A program made the position numbers and the translations under genes. A DNA stretch of 64,000 nt from an uncultured Gammaproteobacteria bacterium (lineage in GTDB: Bacteria > Patescibacteriota > Microgenomatia > Levybacterales > GWA1-39-11), in contig CAZIAP010000001.1 of assembly GCA_964537315.1 (NCBI GenBank), forward strand, positions 23,975 through 87,974, in the 5' to 3' direction. Positions 2,505 through 58,596 of this stretch are shown one piece after another; position 1 is the stretch's first letter; each line of letters opens with the position of its first letter. The notes beneath the pieces were generated by a model. That model saw only the letters and a program-made list of their open reading frames with translations. It was not told where the DNA came from and made no database searches.

Positions 2505-3128
2505 TCAGCTTTGAGGATTTTTAAATAGTTTTGGTTTGATTATAAAGTACGGCAGAATTCCAAGCGCATTTACTCCTGCCGCAAGAAAGAATACGACTGA
2601 GAATCCATAGTTATCAGCTATTAGTCCTCCTATTGCAGCTGAAAATGCCATTCCTAAAAATACCGCTGCATCGTGTATTCCCCACTCGCTTGTTTCTCTC
2701 TTTTTATCTAAATGTGTTGAGAAAAAAGCATTTTTAATAGGTGTAGAAACTCCGAGTCCAATCCCTTTAATAGCATAGAAAAAGTATATTGGAAAAACAG
2801 TTGTAGTGAATGCAAAGCCTATATACGAGATTGTGATAAGCGAAGTCCCCAGTACGATTAGCTTAATTTTTTTCTTGTCTGAATATTTTACCGCAAGCTC
2901 GCCAATTATTAGTTCAAATATGACTCTAGCTACCAAGTACACACTAAAACCGGTTGCTGCAACACTGACGCTTCCCCCCACTACTCTAGTAGCTGCGAAA
3001 ACAGCAAAAATAGGCATTATAAAGTTCATTGCAGACCAGACAAATGTTTCTGAAAGAATAAAGTATTTAATTATTGGATTAATAGCAAAGTGGGTAGGTC
3101 TATGTCCGAGGAAAGATTCTTTTAGCAT
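2505..3128 (-). CDS. MFS-transporter-like 6-TM membrane protein (half-size; possible truncated gene)
   Basis: 207 aa, about six hydrophobic helices resembling the C-terminal half of an MFS permease; there is no room for an N-terminal half upstream. Confidence 0.35.
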   Translation of the reverse strand: MLKESFLGHRPTHFAINPIIKYFILSETFVWSAMNFIMPIFAVFAATRVVGGSVSVAATGFSVYLVARVIFELIIGELAVKYSDKKKIKLIVLGTSLITISYIGFAFTTTVFPIYFFYAIKGIGLGVSTPIKNAFFSTHLDKKRETSEWGIHDAAVFLGMAFSAAIGGLIADNYGFSVVFFLAAGVNALGILPYFIIKPKLFKNPQS

Positions 3129-3176
3129 ATTTACATTGTAATATAAATTAGTTATTAGTTGTTAAAATTTATTTCT

Positions 3177-3875
3177 TTATCTTTTTCTACCTCCAAAAAC
3201 TAAGTTAGTTGCGTCTCCTTTTACTCCAATTCCTACATGAGTCCATTCAGATTTCAACTGACTTTCGTTATGCGATGAGGAGCTCCCATAAATATTTTCT
3301 ATGAGGTTTTTCGCGTCTTCCCAGTTTCCGTAACTTGAGTTCTCGCCAAGTGCATTAAAGCCCATCTGTTCAAAGCCATTATCATCTAATAGTGTCTGAA
3401 ATCCTGCATGATTATCCATACTTCCGGCTGAGGCAAAACTATCTGCTCTACTCTGAGAGAATGTCTGCAACTTTGGGTCAGTTTGCAATGGACCAATCCC
3501 GTTTTTTTGTCTATAGTTGTTTAACGCTTTCAGTATCTCTTCTTGTATAGAGGGAGGTTGTATATCAGTGGTAGGTGCTTGTGTTGGTGTTAAATGTAGA
3601 CTATTCGTAGAGGTTGGAGTTATAGTCGGTGAAATAGAAATTTTTACTGAGGTAGGCGTAGCAGTTGCTGAAGCGGTAGGTGATAGTTTCGTTTCAATTC
3701 CCTGAACTTGCTGTAGTGCGTATGCTTTGGGTGCTGCAGTTTCTTCGTTTAAAAAATTAACGTACTTTACTATGATTACTCCGAAAACAATATAAAAAGT
3801 GACACAAAGAATACCAGATATAATCAGTTCTTTTTTCCCTCGGGCAGAAACTCTCACAAACTCAGTGTAGCACAA
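3177..3875 (-). CDS. Secreted CAP/SCP/PR-1-like (YkwD-type) domain protein with N-terminal anchor and Thr/Pro-rich linker
   Basis: N-terminal TM segment, 'TPTSVKISISPTITPTSTNSLHLTPTQAPTT' linker, C-terminal CAP-like block 'ALNNYRQKNGIGPL...GENSSYGNWEDAKNLIENIYGSSSSHNESQLKSEWTHVGIGV'. Confidence 0.55.
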   Translation of the reverse strand: MCYTEFVRVSARGKKELIISGILCVTFYIVFGVIIVKYVNFLNEETAAPKAYALQQVQGIETKLSPTASATATPTSVKISISPTITPTSTNSLHLTPTQAPTTDIQPPSIQEEILKALNNYRQKNGIGPLQTDPKLQTFSQSRADSFASAGSMDNHAGFQTLLDDNGFEQMGFNALGENSSYGNWEDAKNLIENIYGSSSSHNESQLKSEWTHVGIGVKGDATNLVFGGRKR

Positions 3876-47930: not shown

Positions 47931-48013
47931 ACCTTTATACTAATATATTATACTTATTTCGTACTATATCAGAAACCAGGCACAATTTGAAGATGAATAC
48001 TTAGAACGAGGAC

Positions 48014-48283
48014 TTAACCACGAGTTACACCTTGTTGCTGAAGATATATGAGTATGTCTGCAATAAAATTGCCAACAAATGGAACAACATTTACATACTG
48101 TGAAAGTAAGCTGATGACAGAAAGAAAGAGAGCGATACCAATGACAGAACCCACTCCCCAAAAGATCCCGCCTAATAAATTGTTTGCTATAATCTCTCCT
48201 TTTGATAGCTTCGACGGTTTCTCAAATGGTTGCAATGGTGCGGCAGGAGGAAGAGTATCTTTGCTTTTTTTAAACTTTGCCAT
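48014..48283 (-). CDS. Small 2-TM membrane protein
   Basis: Hydrophobic helices 'LLGGIFWGVGSVIGIALFLSVISLL' and 'VVPFVGNFIADILIYL'. Confidence 0.35.
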   Translation of the reverse strand: MAKFKKSKDTLPPAAPLQPFEKPSKLSKGEIIANNLLGGIFWGVGSVIGIALFLSVISLLSQYVNVVPFVGNFIADILIYLQQQGVTRG

Positions 48284-48335
48284 ACGTGTGATAGTTTAGC
48301 ACAAAAGCAAGCAATATTGAAAGAATAGAATCTGT

Positions 48336-48911
48336 TTATAGTCCAAGATCTCTGTGGATAGATTGCATGGATGCAAGCGTTATTTGAATATATTGTTCAA
48401 GCGGTATATCAATTTTTTCCTCGCAAAGTTCAATCACCTTTCTGTCTACTCTGCGAGAAAAAGCTGTTTGTCCGAATCTCTTATATACAAATTCTGCAGT
48501 TAGCGAATTAAGTTTTTTGTCAGGGTGAATGAGTGCGCACGCAACAATAAGTCCTGTGAGACCATCAACTGTGGTGATTGCCCAGTCCATATCACTTTTG
48601 GGCTGTACTTTTGTGCTTTGAAAATTATGCGATTTGATTGCGTAAGCAATATCTCGGGGAATTATCTCTGGCTCGAGATCAAAAATCAACAGTCCGTGAC
48701 GGTCTAGGGCATTTTTTTCCTGAGCAATTTCATAGTCTATATCATGAAGCAAGCCAGTTATACCCCAAGTTTCTCTATCATGATCTGTACCATCTGGATA
48801 TAGATGATCAAAAATTCCTTTCATACTTGCCTCAGTTGCGAGACAGTGCTTTAGGAGATTTTTGTTATGAAGATACTTTGTTAGAAGTTTATATGCATCT
48901 GTTCGATTCAT
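48336..48911 (-). CDS. HD-domain phosphohydrolase
   Basis: 'HCLATEASMKGIFDHL...GLLHDIDYE' H...HD motif. Confidence 0.65.
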   Translation of the reverse strand: MNRTDAYKLLTKYLHNKNLLKHCLATEASMKGIFDHLYPDGTDHDRETWGITGLLHDIDYEIAQEKNALDRHGLLIFDLEPEIIPRDIAYAIKSHNFQSTKVQPKSDMDWAITTVDGLTGLIVACALIHPDKKLNSLTAEFVYKRFGQTAFSRRVDRKVIELCEEKIDIPLEQYIQITLASMQSIHRDLGL

Positions 48912-48915
48912 AGCG

Positions 48916-48975
48916 TGTGGAGTTAACTGGATTCGAACCAGTGACCTGTCCGATGAACATCGGACCGCTCTAACC
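48916..48975 (-). pseudogene. tRNA-like 3' fragment (D-arm to 3' end) lacking a 5' half; abnormal 8-nt anticodon loop
   Basis: - strand 'GGTTAGAGCG GTCCG ATGTTCAT CGGAC AGGTC ACTGG TTCGAAT CCAGT TAACTCC A': good T-arm and acceptor 3' strand, but the upstream sequence cannot form an acceptor or D stem; the GIY-YIG stop codon lies inside it. Confidence 0.35.
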
Positions 48976-49233
48976 TTTTGTTTTAATTACTCCGTCTGAA
49001 ATTATTTGTTCAATAACTTTTCTACTTTTGAATTTCTTTAGTTTCGTTTCTATTAATCTGGCTTCTTGTACTGTTTGATATTCTTTCTTAAATACTAAAA
49101 TAAATGGAGCTGTCAGTTTGGTATATTTTGATTTTCCAGAGTTATGTTCTTGCAGTCTTCTTTCTATATTTTCAGTAGAGCCAATGTAATATCTGTTATT
49201 TTTTATAGACTTAAGAATATATACAAAAAACAT
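48970..49233 (-). CDS. Standalone GIY-YIG (URI) nuclease-domain protein, YhbQ/COG2827-like
   Basis: 'FFVYILKSIKNNRYYIGSTENIERRLQEHNSGKSKYTK' GIY..YIG..R..EHN motifs; 87 aa; starts 5 nt after tRNA-Val. Confidence 0.7.
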   Translation of the reverse strand: MFFVYILKSIKNNRYYIGSTENIERRLQEHNSGKSKYTKLTAPFILVFKKEYQTVQEARLIETKLKKFKSRKVIEQIISDGVIKTKG

Positions 49234-49237
49234 ACTG

Positions 49238-49309
49238 TGGACGACATTGGGATTGAACCAATGACCTCTTCGATGTCAACGAAGCGCTCTACCACTGAGC
49301 TAGTCGTCC
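49238..49309 (-). tRNA. tRNA-Val (anticodon GAC)
   Basis: - strand 'GGACGAC TA GCTC AGTGGTA GAGC G CTTCG TTGACAT CGAAG AGGTC ATTGG TTCAATC CCAAT GTCGTCC A' folds as a cloverleaf with a 7-bp acceptor stem. Confidence 0.85.
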
Positions 49310-49443
49310 ATATAATTTTGACCTTTCCTATAAACATCGGACCACTCTACTACTGATCTATATACGCAAATAAGCCTCACAATTATACAAAACTATGTAT
49401 GGAATCTCAATTGAAGGTAACTTATGCTTTTACTTCATAAGCA

Positions 49444-49499
49444 TAAAAAAATCCCGACAAAGCGGGATTAAAGTGAAGGGGGTGCAGATACAGCACCCC
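49444..49499 (-). terminator. Tandem hairpins forming a - strand intrinsic terminator
   Basis: - strand 'gggggtgctgtatctgcaccccc...aatcccgctttgtcgggattttttt'. Confidence 0.45.
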
Positions 49500-49605
49500 C
49501 ATTCGGTAAAAGAAATCAGGTGGTCAAAGTGTGACCTTTTCCTCGCCATTGAGGAATTGGTCAGACAACTTTGCCTGATTACTTTTGTGGCACTAGCTTC
49601 GGTCA

Positions 49606-49640
49606 GCGAAACCTGGTCGGTTTCGCTTTTTCTTTTCTTC
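49606..49640 (+). terminator. + strand intrinsic-terminator-like hairpin
   Basis: 'gcgaaacc tggtc ggtttcgc tttttcttttctt'. Confidence 0.4.
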
Positions 49641-50443
49641 AGGATGAAAACCCCATGGAAGAGGTTTATTTTTTGGTTCCATTTTGGTTTCAGTGTGGGT
49701 CTGGATGCAGTCTCTATCTCCCCATTCAGGGTGATAGCGAGTTTCTTCTTCTTCCTCATCTAGAGGAAAGAATCGACCTTTAAACGGAAGGGACATTTCG
49801 ATCTCCTTTCTGCTTTTTGTAAGCCTAAAAACGATGCATAGGTCCGTAACGGACCAGCGCTGCTTTGTGAGCAGCTGCAACTTCTTCCAAATCCCTTGAG
49901 GATGGAGGAAGAGGTCTGCAAGCCTGACATAGCAGTATGCTGAGCGAAGTTTCTATGTCCTCATCGGATTCTGATTGAACGAACACAGCTCGATCTGCCG
50001 TTTCTCCCCAATTTCTCTTGGAAAGAGCAGAATAAACAACTACGCTGTTGGCAGGAAGTTCATCCTCTTTGTTGAGGATCTTCTCCTTGAACTGAGCTTG
50101 GAATTGCTCGTGTAGGACATCTCTGACCTTCATCGAAAGCCAGTCAAGCCTTATGAAGCAAATCGTCGGAAGATCGCTCTTGTCCACTTCTAGATTCCTT
50201 TCAGGAATGTAAAAAACTCCCCTTCGCGGTTTGGTAAATCACGACCTCATGGAATTTCTTCTCCTTTCGTTAATCAAATGCAAGTGCCACGGTGTCTTGA
50301 GTTAACTAAGTCGTATTTACGCCGTTTGTAAAATTGACCAGGTATTCAAGACGATTTTAATGTGCTACTACCCTTCTACTATACTTCCTTCGTTTCTGTT
50401 CCCTTCGACTATGCTCAGGGTAGTTTTTCTGTATTCAGAAAAA

Positions 50444-50470
50444 CAAAAAAAACCTCCCATGTGGGAGGTA
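50444..50470 (-). terminator. Intrinsic terminator (copy 1 of an identical hairpin)
   Basis: - strand 'tacctcccacatgggaggtttttttt'. Confidence 0.55.
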
Positions 50471-50706
50471 GTTCGTATATTTTAGGGCTATATGTCTCCT
50501 CCCACAATTAAATCGCCTCATTAAAGAGGACGACCATAATAATTGGGAAGAGTTGCTTGTGCATACTAACTTTATTGTAAATCCATAGTCTGTAATTGTC
50601 AACATTTAGTTTAATATTGGTGCAGGAGAGTCTACCTCCTGCACCAAGAAAGACAAGGTTCATGCCACTGATGGTGTTCGCCGATGAACATAGTGACAAT
50701 TTAACC

Positions 50707-53258: not shown

Positions 53259-53572
53259 ATCGCCCTATTATACAGGTGAACAGGTTAAAATTCAAAATAT
53301 AAAGTAAAAAGTAGAAAAAGAGCCCATTGATGTTATCGCAGGGCTCGTAGAATTATTCTTTGTTATACTGCTCTGGTAAGAACCTAGAAAAAGGTTCAGC
53401 ATCGTTTGAATCGGGTTGGATTTTGAGAATTTTCTTAATCATATTGAAAATCCTATTAATCAACTTTCTCCCCCTTACTTCTAACCCAAGATAGACAACT
53501 CAATACACACAAAGAATATTACAGTTATTATAACACCAACTATAGGATTAATTAAAGAGTTATTGTGAGGTG

Positions 53573-53655
53573 TGCCCGAGAGAGGAGTTGAACCTCCACA
53601 CCGTTGCCGATACAGCGTTCTGAACACTGCGTGTCTACCATTCCACCACTCGGGC
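53573..53655 (-). tRNA. tRNA-Leu (anticodon CAG)
   Basis: - strand 'GCCCGAG TG GTG GAATGGTAGA CAC G CAGTG TTCAGAA CGCTG TATCGGCAACGGTGT GGAGG TTCAACT CCTCT CTCGGGC A': class II with long variable arm. Confidence 0.85.
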
Positions 53656-53714
53656 ATAATTTAGTTATTGGGCAGTTCATATATTTTGATATATTTTATC
53701 CCTTTTGATCTTCC

Positions 53715-54347
53715 TTGACAAGCAAATACATCTATGGAAAGATAGAAGGAATGGACAAACGGATTATTCTGCTCGGTGTCTATTTGCTCACTGCTCCTGC
53801 TGCACTTTTCGTTCTTATCTTTTATACCCTTTACTATCACCATGAGCATACTCTGTCTCGTACACCTTCTGTAAAGGTGTTGAATTATAATGGTAATTTT
53901 GAAGCTCTACCTGACAATACTGTAAGCACATCAGCGATTAACCTACCAAGTACTGATGCCAGAATTGCAGCGCTGGATGACTTCTTTAAGAAGCACAAAT
54001 CCCCACTTGTCTCTCATAGCAAAATTATTGTTCAGCAGGCTGATGAATATGGGTTTGATTATCGGCTTCTACCTGCAATTGCCATGCAAGAAAGCAACCT
54101 GTGTAAAAAAATTCCTAAGGGAGCTGATCATAACTGTTGGGGTTTCGGTATATACGGAAAAAAACGTACTGGATTCGAATCGTATGATAGAGCTATACAA
54201 GTTATCTCTAAAACTCTTTCCGAGCAGTACATAAGTAAAGGTTTGGAAACTCCGGAGCAGATCATGTCCAAGTATACTCCTAACAGCAATGGTTCATGGG
54301 CAAATGGAGTTATTTACTTCATGAATCAAATCCACTCTAATATTTAG
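53715..54347 (+). CDS. Membrane-anchored lysozyme-like/glucosaminidase-like putative peptidoglycan hydrolase (paralog A)
   Basis: N-terminal TM; 'ADEYGFDYRLLPAIAMQESNLCKK...CWGFGIYG'; homologous to 54690..55241. Confidence 0.4.
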   Translation: MTSKYIYGKIEGMDKRIILLGVYLLTAPAALFVLIFYTLYYHHEHTLSRTPSVKVLNYNGNFEALPDNTVSTSAINLPSTDARIAALDDFFKKHKSPLVSHSKIIVQQADEYGFDYRLLPAIAMQESNLCKKIPKGADHNCWGFGIYGKKRTGFESYDRAIQVISKTLSEQYISKGLETPEQIMSKYTPNSNGSWANGVIYFMNQIHSNI

Positions 54348-54437
54348 CTGCTATATAGTGGTCCAAACTACAAGTGACCACTAAGGCAATTCCAGATTAG
54401 GCCGTATTTATGCTATTTTGAGCATTGTTTTACAGAC

Positions 54438-54466
54438 TTGACAGACTCATAGTTGTTTGCTATAAT
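54438..54466 (+). promoter_or_regulatory. Near-consensus sigma70-type promoter
   Basis: TTGACA (54438-54443), 17-nt spacer, TATAAT (54461-54466). Confidence 0.55.
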
Positions 54467-54689
54467 ACGTGCTAGGTCTCGAGGTAGCCCAAAACTTACT
54501 TTGAGACTCTTTAAAAGGACTGAATCAGTGGATATTTTTTATGTAAAAATCCACATCTCTACGAGGCGATTTAGTCCTTTTAAAGTTTTATAAGCATCTC
54601 CAACGTAGTTTTACCTCTGAGTTCCAAGAAAATATTTCATTATTTTTTTGGAGTCCCAGGTAAACGCATAATGCGAATCGGGATGCAAT

Positions 54690-55241
54690 ATGAAAAAACT
54701 TTTTATTCTTATCGCCTTTCTTCTTGCGGTAAGCGTTACACCTACAACCTTCGCGTCTGAAAAAATTGCAGGACGCTCAGCAACACTTTCTATTGAATCT
54801 AAACGTCAAACTGATAAGAACTTATCTAACGACGTGAGGGTTACTGCAGTTCAAAATGTACTGAAAAAGTATGATTCTATTCTAGTGCCTGAAGCAGAAA
54901 ACTTTGTGTACTATGCTGATAAGCACGGTATCGACTGGAGACTTCTGGTATCTATTTCAGGTCTTGAATCATATTTTGGTGCCCGGTATGTACAAGGGTC
55001 ATATAACGCCTATGGATGGGGTGGCGGATATATATACTTTGAAAGCTGGGAGGATGGTATAGACACTATTTCTTACGCGCTGAAAACGAAATATTATGAT
55101 CGTGGTGCAAATACTGTGGAAAAAATAGGTCCTATTTATGCTGAAAATCCTCATTGGGCAGAGCGCATATCACGTTTTATGACTCAAATTGATAAAGAGT
55201 ATATAAACCTGACTACCCTTGCTGCTGCTCCTCAGTTTTAG
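54690..55241 (+). CDS. Secreted lysozyme-like/glucosaminidase-like putative peptidoglycan hydrolase (paralog B)
   Basis: Signal peptide 'MKKLFILIAFLLAVSVTPTTFASE'; 'ADKHGIDWRLLVSISGLESYFGAR...AYGWGGGYIYF'. Confidence 0.4.
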   Translation: MKKLFILIAFLLAVSVTPTTFASEKIAGRSATLSIESKRQTDKNLSNDVRVTAVQNVLKKYDSILVPEAENFVYYADKHGIDWRLLVSISGLESYFGARYVQGSYNAYGWGGGYIYFESWEDGIDTISYALKTKYYDRGANTVEKIGPIYAENPHWAERISRFMTQIDKEYINLTTLAAAPQF

Positions 55242-55244
55242 AAA

Positions 55245-55267
55245 TGTCAAGAACCGATCTCGACAAG
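55245..55267. repeat. REP-like palindromic element, copy 1
   Basis: 'tgtcaagaaccgatctcgacaag'. Confidence 0.7.
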
Positions 55268-55298
55268 CACTTCGCATTCACATGCAAAGTATTGTATT

Positions 55299-55321
55299 TG
55301 TCAAGAACCGATCTTGACAAG
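55299..55321. repeat. REP-like palindromic element, copy 2 (perfect 8-bp stem)
   Basis: 'tgtcaagaaccgatcttgacaag'. Confidence 0.7.
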
Positions 55322-55349
55322 TTGGATGTGACAGCTCATAACTGATAGT

Positions 55350-56018
55350 ATGTCGTCTCGATATACCGTTAGAAGTTTTTCTAAAAACTGTGTGTATCAC
55401 GCATATAATCGTGGCGTTGAAAAAAGAGATATATTTCTTGATGAATCTGACTGTAGAATATTCCTATTTTACCTTAAGCTCTATTTATCTCCTATAGAAG
55501 CATTAAAGACTCAAAAAATTCCTGGACTTAGGTTAGATAAAATTCTTAAGAATAACTTATCAGAAGAAACTGATCTTCTTTCCTATGCATTAATGCCAAA
55601 CCATTTTCACTTACTGATTAAACAAAAAACTACCAATGGTACTACAAAGTTAATGAAGCGAATGTCTGTTGCATATGCAATGTATTTTAATAAAAAGTAC
55701 AATAGGGTGGGTCCGTTATTTCAGGGAATTTATAAGTCTGTGCTTATCACAACAGACGAACAAATGCTCCATGTATCGCGCTATATCCATCTTAATGCCT
55801 TTGAGATAAAGTCAAATATAGATTTCAAAAAGTTTTCTAGTTACGCTTGGTATTTAAATGCAAATCCACCATCGTGGATACATCCTGACATAATTACTGA
55901 GTACTTTAGAAGTGTGAAAAAAATAAGTAATAACGATATGTTATCGTACCAGAGTTTTGTAGAAGACCATACTCAGCCATCAAAAGAACTACTTGGCGAA
56001 TTAACATTAGAAGACTAA
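55350..56018 (+). mobile_element. REP-associated tyrosine transposase (RAYT, IS200/IS605-like Y1 HUH transposase)
   Basis: HUH motif 'PNHFHLLIKQ'; catalytic Tyr region 'VSRYIHLNAFE'; 222 aa; flanked by REP-like hairpins. Confidence 0.65.
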
Positions 56019-56043
56019 GTTTTTTGTGCTCAATGTCAAGAAC

Positions 56044-56066
56044 CGATCTCGACATATTTGGAGGTA
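56044..56066. repeat. REP-like palindromic element, copy 3
   Basis: 'tgtcaagaaccgatctcgacata'. Confidence 0.7.
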
Positions 56067-56164
56067 TGATCTGAGGGGGGTTGTGTATCGGGTGCATACG
56101 CTAAAATTTGTTTAATATTTCGATTGCAGTTTGTAGGTGGAAAAATGTATAATGTGAGTCGTGA

Positions 56165-56247
56165 GCGGGCGTGGTGAAATGGTATACACGCTAGTTTTAG
56201 GAACTAGTGGCCGCAAGGCCGTGGGGGTTCAAGTCCTCTCGCCCGCA
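56165..56247 (+). tRNA. tRNA-Leu (anticodon TAG)
   Basis: 'GCGGGCG TG GTG AAATGGTATA CAC G CTAGT TTTAGGA ACTAG TGGCCGCAAGGCCGT GGGGG TTCAAGT CCTCT CGCCCGC A'; possible promoter TTGCAG-18-TATAAT upstream. Confidence 0.85.
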
Positions 56248-56293
56248 CTAAAATGGATTAAAGCTGTTTATCCTCGTTTAGTAAACTCGAATT

Positions 56294-56656
56294 ATGAAAC
56301 CCAAAAGTGTTGACGAATACATTGAAAATTTTCCACAAGATCAGAAAGAAAAGCTGATAGAGCTACGAAAGATTATAAAAACTACACTGCCTGATACAAA
56401 GGAAGCACTCAAATGGGGTGATCCAGCAGTCTTGGATAAAGATGGAATGATCTTAGTAATTTATGGTGGATATAAACAACACATGAATCTTGTTGCTACA
56501 CCAAGCACTAAACAGGCGTTAGAAAATGAATTGTCAGATTACAAAACTGGTAAAGGTTCCGTTCAGTTACATTATGATAAACCACTGCCGGTTACTTTGA
56601 TTAAAAAAATCTTGTTATACAGAGCCAAAGAATATCGTGAACAAGGTGTTAAGTGA
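56294..56656 (+). CDS. DUF1801/YdhG-like small protein
   Basis: 'KPKSVDEYIENFPQDQKEKLIELRKIIKTTLPD...LKWG' typical DUF1801 N-terminus. Confidence 0.45.
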   Translation: MKPKSVDEYIENFPQDQKEKLIELRKIIKTTLPDTKEALKWGDPAVLDKDGMILVIYGGYKQHMNLVATPSTKQALENELSDYKTGKGSVQLHYDKPLPVTLIKKILLYRAKEYREQGVK

Positions 56657-56845
56657 AAGTGATTGAATAGGTCTATAATCTACTCACCTATTGTCATTTC
56701 TTCCTGTATTCTTACTGTATTTTTTGATTATTCTCGTTCGATTTCCTTACTATCTAGTTAGTTATTTCAATTTAATGTACCGAATGTATACAAGGTGTCT
56801 TTGTGCAAATATCACAAGCATACCAAGTAAAAGGAGGTGAACTAT

Positions 56846-56998
56846 ATGACTGATGTGTTAAGAGACAAAGATGATTTAAAAAAACGGGAAGAAATAATCG
56901 ATGATGAAGAAGGCGAAGCAGGTGGAGAGGCAGAGTATGACGCAGATATCAACGAAACAACTGATGATCTGATCGAGACTGATGACGATAGGATGTAA
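56846..56998 (+). CDS. Small highly acidic protein (50 aa, not in the ORF track)
   Basis: Consensus SD 'AAAGGAGGTG' 8 nt upstream of the ATG; translation 'MTDVLRDKDDLKKREEIIDDEEGEAGGEAEYDADINETTDDLIETDDDRM'. Confidence 0.35.
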   Translation: MTDVLRDKDDLKKREEIIDDEEGEAGGEAEYDADINETTDDLIETDDDRM

Positions 56999-57169
56999 AT
57001 GGCTAGCGCAGGAGATATGTCCCGCGCTAGGATAATATGCCAAAGCGCTATTTACTCAAAGAATTAAGAGATACATTCCGTTATATCAAAAATGGGTTAG
57101 GAAATATTCGCGGAAAAAAAGGCGGAGAACAAGAAATTAAAGAGGACGAAGAGGTTCAAATAAAAGAAA

Positions 57170-58033
57170 ATGACACAAAAACCAACACCCCCACAACCGA
57201 AACAAACTCTCGATACTAGACCAGGGAAAGAACACGAGATGGTTCAAAAACCTGAGTATTATGGAGAAGATTATAAGCCTGCCGGGAAATTAGAAGGAAA
57301 AATTGCAATTATTACCGGCGGTGATAGTGGAATTGGACGCTCGGTTGCTGTGCTTTTTGCGCGAGAAGGAGCGGATATTGCTATCGCCTATCTTAATGAG
57401 CATAAAGATGCTCAAAAAACTCAACAAGAGGTTGAAAAGGTAGGAAAAAAATGTATTGCTATTTCCGGTGACCTTGGTGAAGAATCACACGCTAATGATG
57501 TCGTAAGCCAGGTGATACAAGAATTCGGGTCATTGGATATATTAGTCAATAATGCTGCCGAGCAGCATCCACAGGAAAGCATTTCTGATATTTCTTCTGA
57601 GCAGCTTGAAAGGACTTTTAGAACAAATATTTTTGCATATTTTTACTTAACTAAAGCTGCTCTATCCCATCTGAAATCAGGAAGTACCATTATTAACACT
57701 ACTTCCGTTACAGCTTACAGAGGAAGCGATCATTTAATTGATTACGCATCTACTAAAGGTGCAATTGTTGCTTTTACACGCTCACTTGCAAGTCAGTTGG
57801 CTGAAAAGAATATTAGAGTCAATGGCGTTGCTCCGGGTCCTATTTGGACTCCGTTAATACCCTCTACTTTCCCTGAAAATCATGTTGAAAAGTTTGGAGA
57901 AAAAGAGCCTTTAGGTCGTCCCGGTCAACCTGATGAAGTTGCACCAAGTTATGTATTTTTAGCCTCACAGGATTCTTCTTACATGACAGGTCAGGTACTC
58001 CACCCTAACGGCGGGGAAATTATAAACGGATAG
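57170..58033 (+). CDS. SDR-family oxidoreductase, YghA/YdaD (general stress protein 39)-like
   Basis: 'GKIAIITGGDSGIGRSVA' NAD(P) site, 'NNAA', Y-x3-K; N-terminal Pro/Lys-rich extension typical of YghA. Confidence 0.8.
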   Translation: MTQKPTPPQPKQTLDTRPGKEHEMVQKPEYYGEDYKPAGKLEGKIAIITGGDSGIGRSVAVLFAREGADIAIAYLNEHKDAQKTQQEVEKVGKKCIAISGDLGEESHANDVVSQVIQEFGSLDILVNNAAEQHPQESISDISSEQLERTFRTNIFAYFYLTKAALSHLKSGSTIINTTSVTAYRGSDHLIDYASTKGAIVAFTRSLASQLAEKNIRVNGVAPGPIWTPLIPSTFPENHVEKFGEKEPLGRPGQPDEVAPSYVFLASQDSSYMTGQVLHPNGGEIING

Positions 58034-58116
58034 TTATAATTTTTCACGATAATTTTCATTGATATTAAGTAATATTTCTTGTAAAATGTAAGCCACCCTT
58101 CAGGAATGGAAATATG

Positions 58117-58200
58117 GGCTGATGGCGAAACTGGTAGACGCGCAGTCTTGAGGGGGCTGTACCGCAAGGTGTGGAGGTTCAAGTCCTCTTCAGCCCACCA
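58117..58200 (+). tRNA. tRNA-Leu (anticodon GAG), CCA encoded
   Basis: 'GGGCTGA TG GCG AAACTGGTAGA CGC G CAGTC TTGAGGG GGCTG TACCGCAAGGTGT GGAGG TTCAAGT CCTCT TCAGCCC ACCA'. Confidence 0.85.
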
Positions 58201-58279
58201 AACGTTTCACATTAAACTACTTTTATTACCTTCGTACGTATGTTAAAATGATCTCTGATATAGGGTTAATCTTATATTT

Positions 58280-58354
58280 GGGCGCTTAGCTCAGCTGGTT
58301 TAGAGCGCCTCGTTTACACCGAGGAGGTCAGGGGTTCGAATCCCTTAGCGCCCA
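58280..58354 (+). tRNA. tRNA-Val (anticodon TAC)
   Basis: 'GGGCGCT TAGCTCAGCTGGTTTAGAGCG CCTCG TTTACAC CGAGG AGGTC AGGGG TTCGAAT CCCTT AGCGCCC A'. Confidence 0.85.
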
Positions 58355-58410
58355 CTCTTCATTACGTCCACTGTAGACAATAACAGGTTTACATCAAACG
58401 AATGTGAGAT

Positions 58411-58483
58411 GCCGAGATTGCCAAGTTGGTCAAGGCGCTTGTCTGAAGAACAAGTTATGCGGGTTCGATTCCTGCTCTCGGCA
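58411..58483 (+). tRNA. tRNA-Phe (anticodon GAA)
   Basis: 'GCCGAGA TT GCC AAGTTGGTCAA GGC G CTTGT CTGAAGA ACAAG TTAT GCGGG TTCGATT CCTGC TCTCGGC A'. Confidence 0.85.
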
Positions 58484-58521
58484 CAACTGACAATAAAGGA
58501 AGCCTTGATTTTCCTTAAAAA

Positions 58522-58596
58522 GCGGCGGTAGTTCAGCGGTAGAATGCTTCCTTGCCAAGGAAGATGTCGCCGGTTCGATCCCGGTCCGCCGCTCCA
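58522..58596 (+). tRNA. tRNA-Gly (anticodon GCC), CCA encoded
   Basis: 'GCGGCGG TAGTTCAGCGGTAGAATG CTTCC TTGCCAA GGAAG ATGTC GCCGG TTCGATC CCGGT CCGCCGC TCCA'. Confidence 0.85.

Follow-up and report, generated by a model that had tools for sequence, protein, structure and literature searches.

A small GIY-YIG nuclease cassette in a tRNA-Val gene of a Patescibacteria genome, and the family of probable selfish elements around it

In the stretch of contig CAZIAP010000001.1 (assembly GCA_964537315.1) analysed here, referred to as the window in its full length of 64,000 nucleotides, the tRNA-Val(GAC) gene that stands alone at this site in relatives is represented by two dead pieces, with a working tRNA-Val and the gene of a small GIY-YIG nuclease between them. 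This unit is probably a homing-type selfish cassette, which disrupts a tRNA gene while keeping a working copy of it, and the balance of the evidence favours regarding it as one of a family of tiny selfish cassettes residing in tRNA genes of the Patescibacteria (candidate phyla radiation, CPR). The cassette consists of a gene for a nuclease of about 87 amino acids of the UPF0213/Slx1 type, an intact tRNA on the same strand that abuts it, and one or two overlapping dead tRNA pieces of the same isoacceptor, in which a palindrome occupies positions 27-43. The cutting site of the enzyme and the role of the palindrome are inferred.

The unit is read on the minus strand, and the positions of its parts, given in window coordinates, are collected in Table 1. 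In the 5' piece, the acceptor 5' strand and D-arm (GCGTATA-TA-GATCAGTAGTAGAGT-G) are followed by a degenerate palindrome (GTCCGATGTTTATAGGAA, 49342-49325) and by AGGTCA. Over its first 25 nucleotides this piece matches the 5' end of the tRNA-Val of the related locus L064 at 20 positions, every difference being a change from G/C to A/T, and it folds no better than shuffled sequence (z = -0.36). A spacer of nine nucleotides separates it from the intact tRNA-Val(GAC), whose identity and strand had been given correctly in a first-pass annotation of this DNA. The ATG of the open reading frame (ORF) follows after three to five nucleotides, depending on where the end of the tRNA is placed, so that the gap of five reported earlier is one of the admissible values. 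The 3' piece, in which GGTTAGAGCG precedes the palindrome, is laid out as GGTTAGAGC-G, the palindrome GTCCGATGTTCATCGGAC, an AGGTC variable loop, a T-arm and the end TAACTCC-ACA; the variable loop, a perfect T-arm (ACTGG-TTCGAAT-CCAGT) and the 3' acceptor strand (TAACTCC-A) are thus retained. GGTTAGAGC corresponds to the D-loop and the 3' strand of the D-stem, and it contains the stop codon of the ORF (TAG, 48972-48970), which confirms the earlier observation that the ORF ends inside a tRNA-like 3' fragment. Four nucleotides beyond this piece the gene of the HD-domain protein begins.

Table 1. Features of the nuclease-tRNA unit and its flanks, in window positions and in the order in which the unit is read.
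Feature	Positions	Strand	Remarks
Sigma-70-like promoter, TTGAGA-17-TATAAT	49410-49382	-	Consensus matched at 11 of 12 positions; putative promoter of the entire unit
5' piece, decayed, of a tRNA-Val(GAC) gene	49367-49319	-	49 nucleotides
tRNA-Val(GAC), intact working copy	49309-49237	-	ARAGORN call; Rfam tRNA 69.6 bits
GIY-YIG nuclease ORF (UPF0213/Slx1-like)	49233-48970	-	87 amino acids; Pfam PF01541
3' piece of resident-type tRNA-Val(GAC)	48975-48916	-	Overlaps the ORF stop codon
18-bp palindrome, GTCCGATG-TT-CATCGGAC	48965-48948	.	Occupies the anticodon-arm position (27-43) of the 3' piece
HD-domain hydrolase gene	48336-48911	-	Weak Pfam HD match; conserved downstream neighbour

A 31-nucleotide core of the 5' piece is a direct repeat of 48942-48972 (87% identity, spacing 377 nucleotides) and brackets the tRNA and the ORF. 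Between the two repeats, no gene other than these was found, and neither an integrase nor a recombinase. The palindrome, the direct repeat and the upstream 5' piece with its own palindrome had all been missed in the first pass. The promoter-like match is the only one ahead of the ORF and lies upstream of the 5' piece; none was found between this piece and the ORF, which has no such site of its own. Its TATAAT-TGTGAG context is shared with the promoter preceding the single tRNA-Val of L064, and two terminator-like hairpins lie immediately upstream of it. The identical arrangement is present in two independent assemblies (L001 and L002), and the locus is therefore not an assembly artefact.

The state of the site was compared among relatives. 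Using the HD protein as the anchor for orthologous loci, 653 homologues were found, and the site was aligned between the window and the loci L060-L065; the order tRNA-Val(GAC), HD, DUF5665, ThrRS is kept in relatives. In L060, whose HD protein is 65% identical to that of the window, a TATAAT box is followed by one intact tRNA-Val(GAC) and HD, with no nuclease, and the state of L061 (66%) and L065 (75%) is the same. L063 (63%) is filled and presents a promoter, two palindrome-bearing 5' pseudo-copies, an intact tRNA-Val, the ORF, a palindrome-bearing 3' pseudo-copy and HD, its 3' flank before HD being that of L061. L062 (74%) shows the end of the ORF, a palindrome damaged by a three-nucleotide deletion, the 3' piece and HD. 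There is thus a presence/absence polymorphism at one conserved site, filled in the window, L062 and L063 and empty in L060, L061 and L065, and the filled L063 sits in an HD cluster (81-83% identity) that also holds the empty L060 and L061. L064 (76%) has a lone tRNA-Val of another sequence type and no ORF; in the 39 nucleotides between this tRNA and HD (L064:1461-1500), TTAGAGGGA and TTAACTCAAC look like the two termini of the 3' piece found in L062 and the window, and this segment may, tentatively, be a deletion remnant of such a piece. Finally, L139, for which HD identity was not computed, has a 5' pseudo-copy, an intact tRNA and HD, and lacks the ORF.

These comparisons bear out the earlier suggestion that a GIY-YIG cassette had inserted into, or overwritten, a second tRNA gene: related genomes carry either an intact single tRNA without nuclease or the same truncated fragment (L062, L063). 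The word "second" has to be revised in part, as the fragment is indeed derived from a tRNA, but is itself of the tRNA-Val(GAC) type found alone here in relatives, which makes the intact tRNA-Val a part of the rearranged unit and not an unrelated neighbour. The 3' part of this fragment differs from the intact tRNA-Val(GAC) of the empty L061 at two of 30 positions, a near-identity that identifies it as the 3' part of the type normally alone at this locus, and from the L062 piece at two of 32. The working tRNA of the window is just 69-71% identical to the tRNA-Val(GAC) of L060, L061 and L063, and its D-loop and anticodon arm are those of L064. With the 5' piece and the working tRNA of the L064 type and the 3' piece of the L060/L061 type, the locus combines two tRNA-Val(GAC) alleles in mosaic fashion. 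For the window, this difference in sequence type between the working tRNA and the 3' piece rules out that the neighbouring tRNA-Val was simply and recently duplicated in tandem, an origin that does apply to L063, L022 and L017 with their identical copies.

The first-pass description of the ORF as an 87-residue GIY-YIG protein of YhbQ/COG2827 type is well founded. Its match to Pfam GIY-YIG (E-value 6.3e-17, 62 bits against a cut-off of 22.6) establishes membership of the superfamily, and the catalytic set Y5, Y16, R26, H30 and E62 is invariant in the 24 aligned homologues (the window protein and 23 others). When the profile of this alignment was compared with the PDB, the closest solved relative was the UPF0213 protein BH0048 (1zg2, 2.6e-14), followed by EF2693 (1ywl, 2.3e-12), SLX1 (about 1e-6) and I-TevI (6e-4). 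The AlphaFold model (mean predicted local distance difference test score, pLDDT, 91) has the strand and helix order of the beta-beta-alpha-alpha-beta-alpha fold, and Foldseek ranks 1zg2, HIGLE and Slx1 above I-TevI and UvrC. Profile and predicted fold agree in placing the nuclease in the UPF0213/YhbQ/Slx1 (URI) branch of GIY-YIG proteins. The 87 residues comprise the catalytic domain and one C-terminal helix, and a separate DNA-binding domain, as in I-TevI and the Seg proteins, is absent. Between the window and the copies in L062 and L063, the nonsynonymous divergence (dN) is 0.12-0.22 and the synonymous divergence (dS) is saturated at about 1.4; the resulting low dN/dS of about 0.09-0.16 indicates purifying selection. 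With conserved catalytic residues and a ratio near 0.1, the gene looks functional.

A scan of one genome per species, with a search built on an eight-sequence alignment, yielded 57 related loci. The homologues come almost entirely from Patescibacteria/CPR metagenomes, with a few metagenome-assembled genomes of this sample assigned to other phyla. A tRNA gene lies on the same strand within 40 nucleotides of the ORF at 45 of the 57 loci, and at least 12 isotypes occur as partners, among them Val, Ala, Asp, Gly, Thr, Arg, Glu, Met, Gln, Ile and Trp, so that the association is not one of conserved synteny. Anticodons of the form GNC are found in 25 of 53 partners (P = 4e-13 by a naive binomial that ignores kinship among loci). 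According to the order of the genes, two arrangements can be distinguished. In the first, the ORF precedes the tRNA, and its stop codon coincides, in 17 loci, exactly with U8-A9-G10 of that tRNA. In the second, to which the window belongs, the tRNA comes first, the ATG lies 0-10 nucleotides past its end, and the ORF ends as ..GG-TAG-AGC, sequence that forms the D-loop of a tRNA 3' fragment. In both, the unit comes with incomplete copies of its partner tRNA. In L027, for instance, positions 1 to about 56 of a tRNA-Ala with a palindrome are followed by the ORF, an intact tRNA-Ala, a 59-nucleotide spacer, and positions 10-76 of tRNA-Ala with the same palindrome. The 5' pseudo-copy of the first arrangement stops in the T-loop, directly after GGTTC, which fits a break point like that of the phage enzyme SegB.

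Decayed members were also found: the ORF of L049 is a stop-ridden pseudogene between a tRNA and a pseudo-tRNA, that of L057 is truncated, and in the metagenome sample the intact tRNA is paired with a 5' or a 3' dead piece and no ORF in L139, L129, L160, L173, L156, L165 and L121. In the ORF-less L156 (1440-1760), a truncated duplicate of the 5' part of tRNA-Arg(CCT) stands ahead of this gene, and eight nucleotides past a tRNA-Ala(GGC) a palindrome-bearing 3' pseudo-copy abuts the ATG of the next gene; here a nuclease encoded elsewhere in the genome may have acted in trans. In L012 (2650-3276), two tandem GIY-YIG ORFs follow a tRNA-Thr(GGT), each with its own tRNA 3' fragment behind it, and in the first of these fragments a GTCCGA..TCGGAC stem encloses TTGGT left from the Thr anticodon loop. 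In the most distant members, L055 (2155-2924) and L051 (231-1491) from Kiritimatiellales/Pontiella, the GIY-YIG ORF lies near the transfer-messenger RNA gene ssrA and not near a tRNA.

A palindrome recurs across the family. Folded as RNA, that of the window forms a 7-bp stem with a GUUC loop (z = -4.3), and the 3' piece folds as this hairpin plus the T-arm (z = -2.7). The "8-nt anticodon loop" of the first-pass annotation exists as a loop region, but is really the centre of the 18-bp palindrome and not a product of decay. The motif CCGAYG-N0-8-CRTCGG occurs once in the window against 0.01 expected, and the same motif adjoins the nuclease gene in at least 26 of the 57 loci. In 24 loci, a partial copy of the partner tRNA matches on both sides (9-mers with at most one mismatch), with the palindrome in place of the anticodon arm (27-43). 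The consensus is usually YCCGAYG-NN-CRTCGGR, the commonest forms being GTCCGATG-NN-CATCGGAC and TCCCGATG-NN-CATCGGGA; sometimes ..CCGACG..CGTCGG.. or other GC-rich hairpins are found. In the loci the strict motif stands almost exclusively beside the ORF; palindrome density is 3.2 per kb within 250 nucleotides of it against 0.35 per kb elsewhere (ninefold), and at least one palindrome always lies within about 50 nucleotides. The core is kept over deep divergence while the outer pairs vary symmetrically (GT..AC, TC..GA, CT..AG, AT..AT), as do ATG/CAT and ACG/CGT. Among many loci, L027, L021, L024, L039, L054, L063 and the window have the unit bracketed by two copies. Extra or nested palindromes stand in the D-loops of pseudo-copies in L019, L034, L054 and L021, the T-arm is replaced by a palindrome in L007, and L040 has palindromes with expanded centres. 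In the latter locus (Omnitrophota; 2890-3440), pseudo-tRNA-Met copies carry an insert of about 77 nucleotides between positions 26 and 27, made of two such palindrome units, after which the native anticodon arm is kept.

In shape, the palindrome is a GNC-type anticodon arm (A32 T33 G34 N C36 A37 T38) with one extra base at the centre of the dyad, and one functional tRNA-Val(GAC), in L005, has the version with a seven-nucleotide loop, CCCCGATGACATCGGGG. This likeness suggests a symmetric enzyme with such an arm as its ancestral site, the form with the extra base being a non-cleavable or binding-only variant. By analogy with Slx1-like relatives, the palindrome may just as well, as a hairpin or cruciform, be the site on which the enzyme itself acts. 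The core is kept whatever the partner tRNA, which argues that it is more than a local resistance scar. That it is a genome-wide repeat or miniature inverted-repeat transposable element is rejected by its single copy in the window and its near restriction to the vicinity of the ORF in the loci. Across the whole metagenome collection, its exact 16 specified bases were found in unrelated hairpins at 94 of 126 sampled sites, and the motif alone is thus not diagnostic. Fill-in of a one-nucleotide overhang was rejected as the source of the extra central base, as it would give AA, CC, GG or TT, whereas TA, GA and GC predominate.

Under the explanation as a homing-type cassette, the nuclease would break the tRNA gene of a cassette-free genome, and the break would be repaired from the cassette-bearing copy, with the D-arm and the variable loop/T-arm serving as homology arms. 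Such repair would duplicate the middle of the tRNA, place the palindrome where the anticodon arm had stood, and import or keep one intact tRNA, by which the cell would survive. Overlapping 5' and 3' pieces, both with the donor palindrome, would result from gap repair accompanied by crossing-over or from copying between the homologous pieces that lie outermost, and adjoining sequence would be co-converted, which would explain why the 5' piece and the working tRNA are of one tRNA-Val type and the 3' piece is of another. The nuclease would be expressed from the tRNA promoter: where the tRNA comes first, the cut of RNase Z after it would leave a nearly leaderless mRNA, and where the tRNA comes last and supplies the stop codon, cutting by RNase P would remove that codon. 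Later recombination between the repeats would delete the gene and leave ORF-less remnants. The architecture, the recurrence at many tRNAs, the presence/absence polymorphism, the mosaic flanks, the conserved gene and the decayed derivatives all speak for this explanation, and a palindrome in place of the anticodon arm would be compatible with a resistant allele.

Several observations weigh against it. The tRNA of the cassette keeps its native anticodon arm, D-loop and T-loop, and would itself be cleavable if any of these arms were the target. The protein is a catalytic domain alone, whereas known GIY-YIG homing enzymes also have one for binding DNA. Cassettes at unrelated tRNAs (Asp, Ala, Gly, Arg, Val) share one palindrome core, which is unexpected for a mere resistance scar. 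Between the window and L063, the GIY-YIG proteins are 67% identical, similar to the 63% of the HD proteins, and long vertical inheritance with occasional loss may also have shaped the locus. Additionally, 30 of 32 positions of the 3' piece are identical between the window and L062, against a proportion of synonymous differences (pS) of 0.63 in the adjacent ORF. This conservation hints at a function beyond that of a scar; the piece, better kept than neutral sites, would have either a role as RNA or DNA or be repeatedly refreshed by conversion.

With lower probability, the palindrome may be a portable hairpin module, recognised by a minimal structure-specific nuclease of the UPF0213/Slx1 type and swapped by it into the hairpin arms of tRNA genes, mostly into the anticodon arm and sometimes into the D-loop or T-arm. 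The autonomous form would hold both the nuclease gene and the sole working copy of the tRNA that it had destroyed, a hostage that would prevent the host from shedding it; were the two dead pieces to recombine, the tRNA left behind would have no anticodon. A neighbouring proposal, which we consider unlikely, takes the palindrome as the nuclease's own recognition and cleavage site, marking the ends of a transposon-like or circle-forming unit: an Slx1-like enzyme would cut the two palindromes as extruded hairpins or cruciforms, releasing or copying the gene with the working tRNA, and the segment would enter another tRNA gene at a hairpin-forming arm, solo palindromes being the non-autonomous form. 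The deeply conserved core with symmetric change of its outer pairs, the constant proximity to the ORF, the bracketing of the unit by two copies, the palindromes in D-loops, in the T-arm of L007 and with expanded centres in L040, and the structure-specific nucleases among the closest solved relatives are all in line with it. A dimer-binding site inherited with its protein, however, also predicts symmetric covariation; cutting of the donor alone gives no spread, the palindrome is absent from naive tRNA genes, neither excised forms nor circular junctions were seen, and we know of no GIY-YIG enzyme that carries out strand transfer.

The conservation of the 3' piece could also be read, rather improbably, as that of a functional RNA element in a stable, mostly vertically inherited operon, for example one that stabilises the 3' end of the nuclease mRNA or directs its processing, or a signal that frees the downstream HD mRNA. 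The similarity of this piece in the window and L062 next to an ORF differing at 63% of synonymous sites, its folding as hairpin and T-arm and that of the hairpin alone, the single promoter-like site under which the unit and the HD gene appear to lie, and the position of HD directly after the tRNA in empty sites too would suit such a role. Recognition by RNase P or RNase Z is doubtful in a piece without the 5' acceptor strand and D-stem; the 5' piece of the window decays freely, the palindrome of L062 itself has a deletion, and perfect loop-less palindromes such as GTCCGATGTACATCGGAC are better suited to a site in duplex DNA than to an RNA hairpin. The diversity of partners, the presence/absence polymorphism and the ORF-less remnants would be left unexplained.

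It is very improbable that the nuclease is an ordinary host repair gene of the YhbQ/UPF0213 type residing in tRNA operons, with the tRNA pieces as by-products of local duplication and decay. Strong purifying selection, membership of a family not usually regarded as mobile, and a GIY-YIG divergence that roughly tracks that of HD would be expected of such a gene, but the partner isotype varies among loci, related genomes differ in whether they have the gene at this site, pseudogenised and truncated copies are known (L049, L057), and the exact replacement of the anticodon arm by a conserved palindrome in 24 loci is not repeatable by random decay.

Finally, that the 3' piece is a real but unusual tRNA, such as a frameshift suppressor with an eight-nucleotide loop, or another misread structural RNA, as the first-pass annotation had also considered, is scarcely credible: its T-arm, variable loop and 3' acceptor strand are intact, Rfam aligns it to the tRNA model end to end and ARAGORN calls similar pseudo-copies in L026 and L049, but ARAGORN is silent here, the Rfam tRNA score (22.8 bits, E-value 0.12) is below the gathering score of 29, the alignment of 48990-48916 has two of seven acceptor and three of four D-stem pairs non-standard and one extra loop base, the supposed loop is self-complementary, and the two programs accept neither a canonical tRNA nor any other RNA. 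What might pass for a 5' acceptor strand completing a second tRNA, GGAGTAA (six of seven positions complementary to TAACTCC), is part of the coding sequence for the conserved DGVIK motif; neither L062 nor L063 preserves it, and the resemblance is therefore a coincidence. A group I intron or other known RNA was rejected, no intron family being found by Rfam in 48000-50500 at E-values up to 10, and the weak matches to GAIT, ycf2 and others are chance or tRNA look-alikes. A phage origin was rejected as well, with no match found in 50,697 phage records and only distant relatives in viral contigs, none of them with an adjoining tRNA.

Elsewhere in the window, a stretch of about 1.3 kb upstream of the unit (49430-50700) is without a convincing gene, and the gene calls of L001 and L002 in this region have no Pfam matches; several terminator-like hairpins lie at 49450-49627 on both strands. 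Six further tRNA genes (three Leu, Val-TAC, Phe and Gly-GCC) are found within 10 kb (53572-58596), four of them in one array (58116-58596), and none is adjoined by a nuclease gene or palindrome. Annotation artefacts arise from such units in other genomes: ARAGORN calls palindrome-bearing pseudo-tRNAs as genes, as "tRNA-Val tac" in L026 (2930-3003) and as "tRNA-??? caaa" with a four-nucleotide anticodon in L049 (375-446), and the N-terminal extension of some homologue gene calls (P0015, P0020) is translated tRNA. In L036, the last 26 or so bases, after a tRNA-like stretch behind the GIY-YIG ORF, are an Illumina adapter (AGATCGGAAGAGCGTCGTGTAGGGAA), an assembly contaminant.

In the literature searched, no description was found of UPF0213-type nuclease genes fused to tRNA genes, the work on SegB alone coming close, nor of pseudo-tRNAs in which a palindrome replaces the anticodon arm. 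Free-standing selfish GIY-YIG nucleases in tRNA loci are already known from phages; a cassette at many CPR tRNA genes looks like an undescribed kind of selfish, tRNA-targeting DNA, and the pairing of palindrome and nuclease might, with considerable doubt, represent a distinct mobile mechanism. These cassettes would give a concrete role to the widespread, tiny UPF0213/YhbQ-like nucleases, for which we know of no established function. They would make the essential, single-copy tRNA genes of the smallest bacterial genomes targets of selfish DNA, with killing of the host avoided by the intact copy always kept beside the wrecked one, and offer a possible route for the replacement of tRNA genes by foreign alleles. 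They also account for odd or false tRNA calls in CPR genomes, including eight-nucleotide loops and "???" anticodons, and for ORFs that begin with translated tRNA. Should the palindrome be the site of the enzyme, the two would form a compact, programmable-looking pair of nuclease and site; if hairpin modules are indeed exchanged, a new class of nuclease-driven mobile element with built-in "hostage" addiction would be at hand, and with it a first clue to a biological role of UPF0213 members.

From the perspective of known systems, the unit shares with integrase-dependent islands and prophages a partial tRNA direct repeat that brackets the insert and the keeping of one functional tRNA. It differs in having no integrase or recombinase and a length of just about 0.45 kb, and in repeats that represent the middle of the tRNA (D-arm to variable loop/T-loop) and not its 3' end, with a foreign palindrome in place of the anticodon arm. 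The earlier analogy with integration at tRNA 3' ends is therefore not upheld, with junctions at the anticodon-arm position and in the D-loop and T-loop. The anticodon loops of bacterial tRNA genes can harbour group I introns with homing endonucleases, for example Synechocystis tRNA-fMet with I-Ssp6803I, and anticodon-arm DNA is naturally near-palindromic, which suits a symmetric enzyme. These introns resemble the cassette in placing a selfish nuclease gene within the anticodon region of a tRNA gene; bacterial group I introns have been reviewed (PMC3984707). The cassette has no ribozyme, and function is not restored by splicing but kept by a separate intact tRNA; the two pieces in the window overlap, with a duplicated middle, and joining them would give a tRNA without anticodon, so that the unit does not qualify as an intron.

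Among chromosomal proteins, the UPF0213/YhbQ/COG2827 family shares the size class and the conserved catalytic Tyr, Tyr, Arg, His and Glu, and with Slx1 it provides the best sequence and fold matches (BH0048, EF2693, Slx1, HIGLE). Slx1 works with Slx4 on branched DNA. To our knowledge, neither mobility nor an association with tRNA genes has been established for bacterial UPF0213 proteins, and the literature searched revealed no such link.

The closest documented analogue is SegB, a free-standing GIY-YIG homing endonuclease in the tRNA gene cluster of phages T4 and T6, whose family shows significant enrichment beside tRNAs and no strong preference among isotypes (PMC2330249; PMC13096335). It cuts inside tRNA genes at the motif RAWTSGAAC, and its action leads to flanking tRNA markers being inherited jointly and, dependent on recombination, to tandem copies of tRNA plus segB (PMC2330249; PMC13096335). 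In our reading, this motif would be T-loop DNA. SegB has more than 200 residues and a C-terminal DNA-binding part; the window protein, in contrast, has 87, is chromosomal and belongs to the UPF0213/Slx1 branch. A tblastn search against 50,697 phage records gave no match, and the NCBIfam model grpIintron_endo ("group I intron endonuclease") scores 27 bits against a cut-off of 56; by sequence the protein does not belong to the SegB family. Palindrome-substituted pseudo-tRNAs have not been reported at SegB loci, nor has a fusion of segB with a tRNA that supplies its stop codon, as in the cassette family. Both systems have a GIY-YIG catalytic domain encoded by a gene that lies among tRNA genes.

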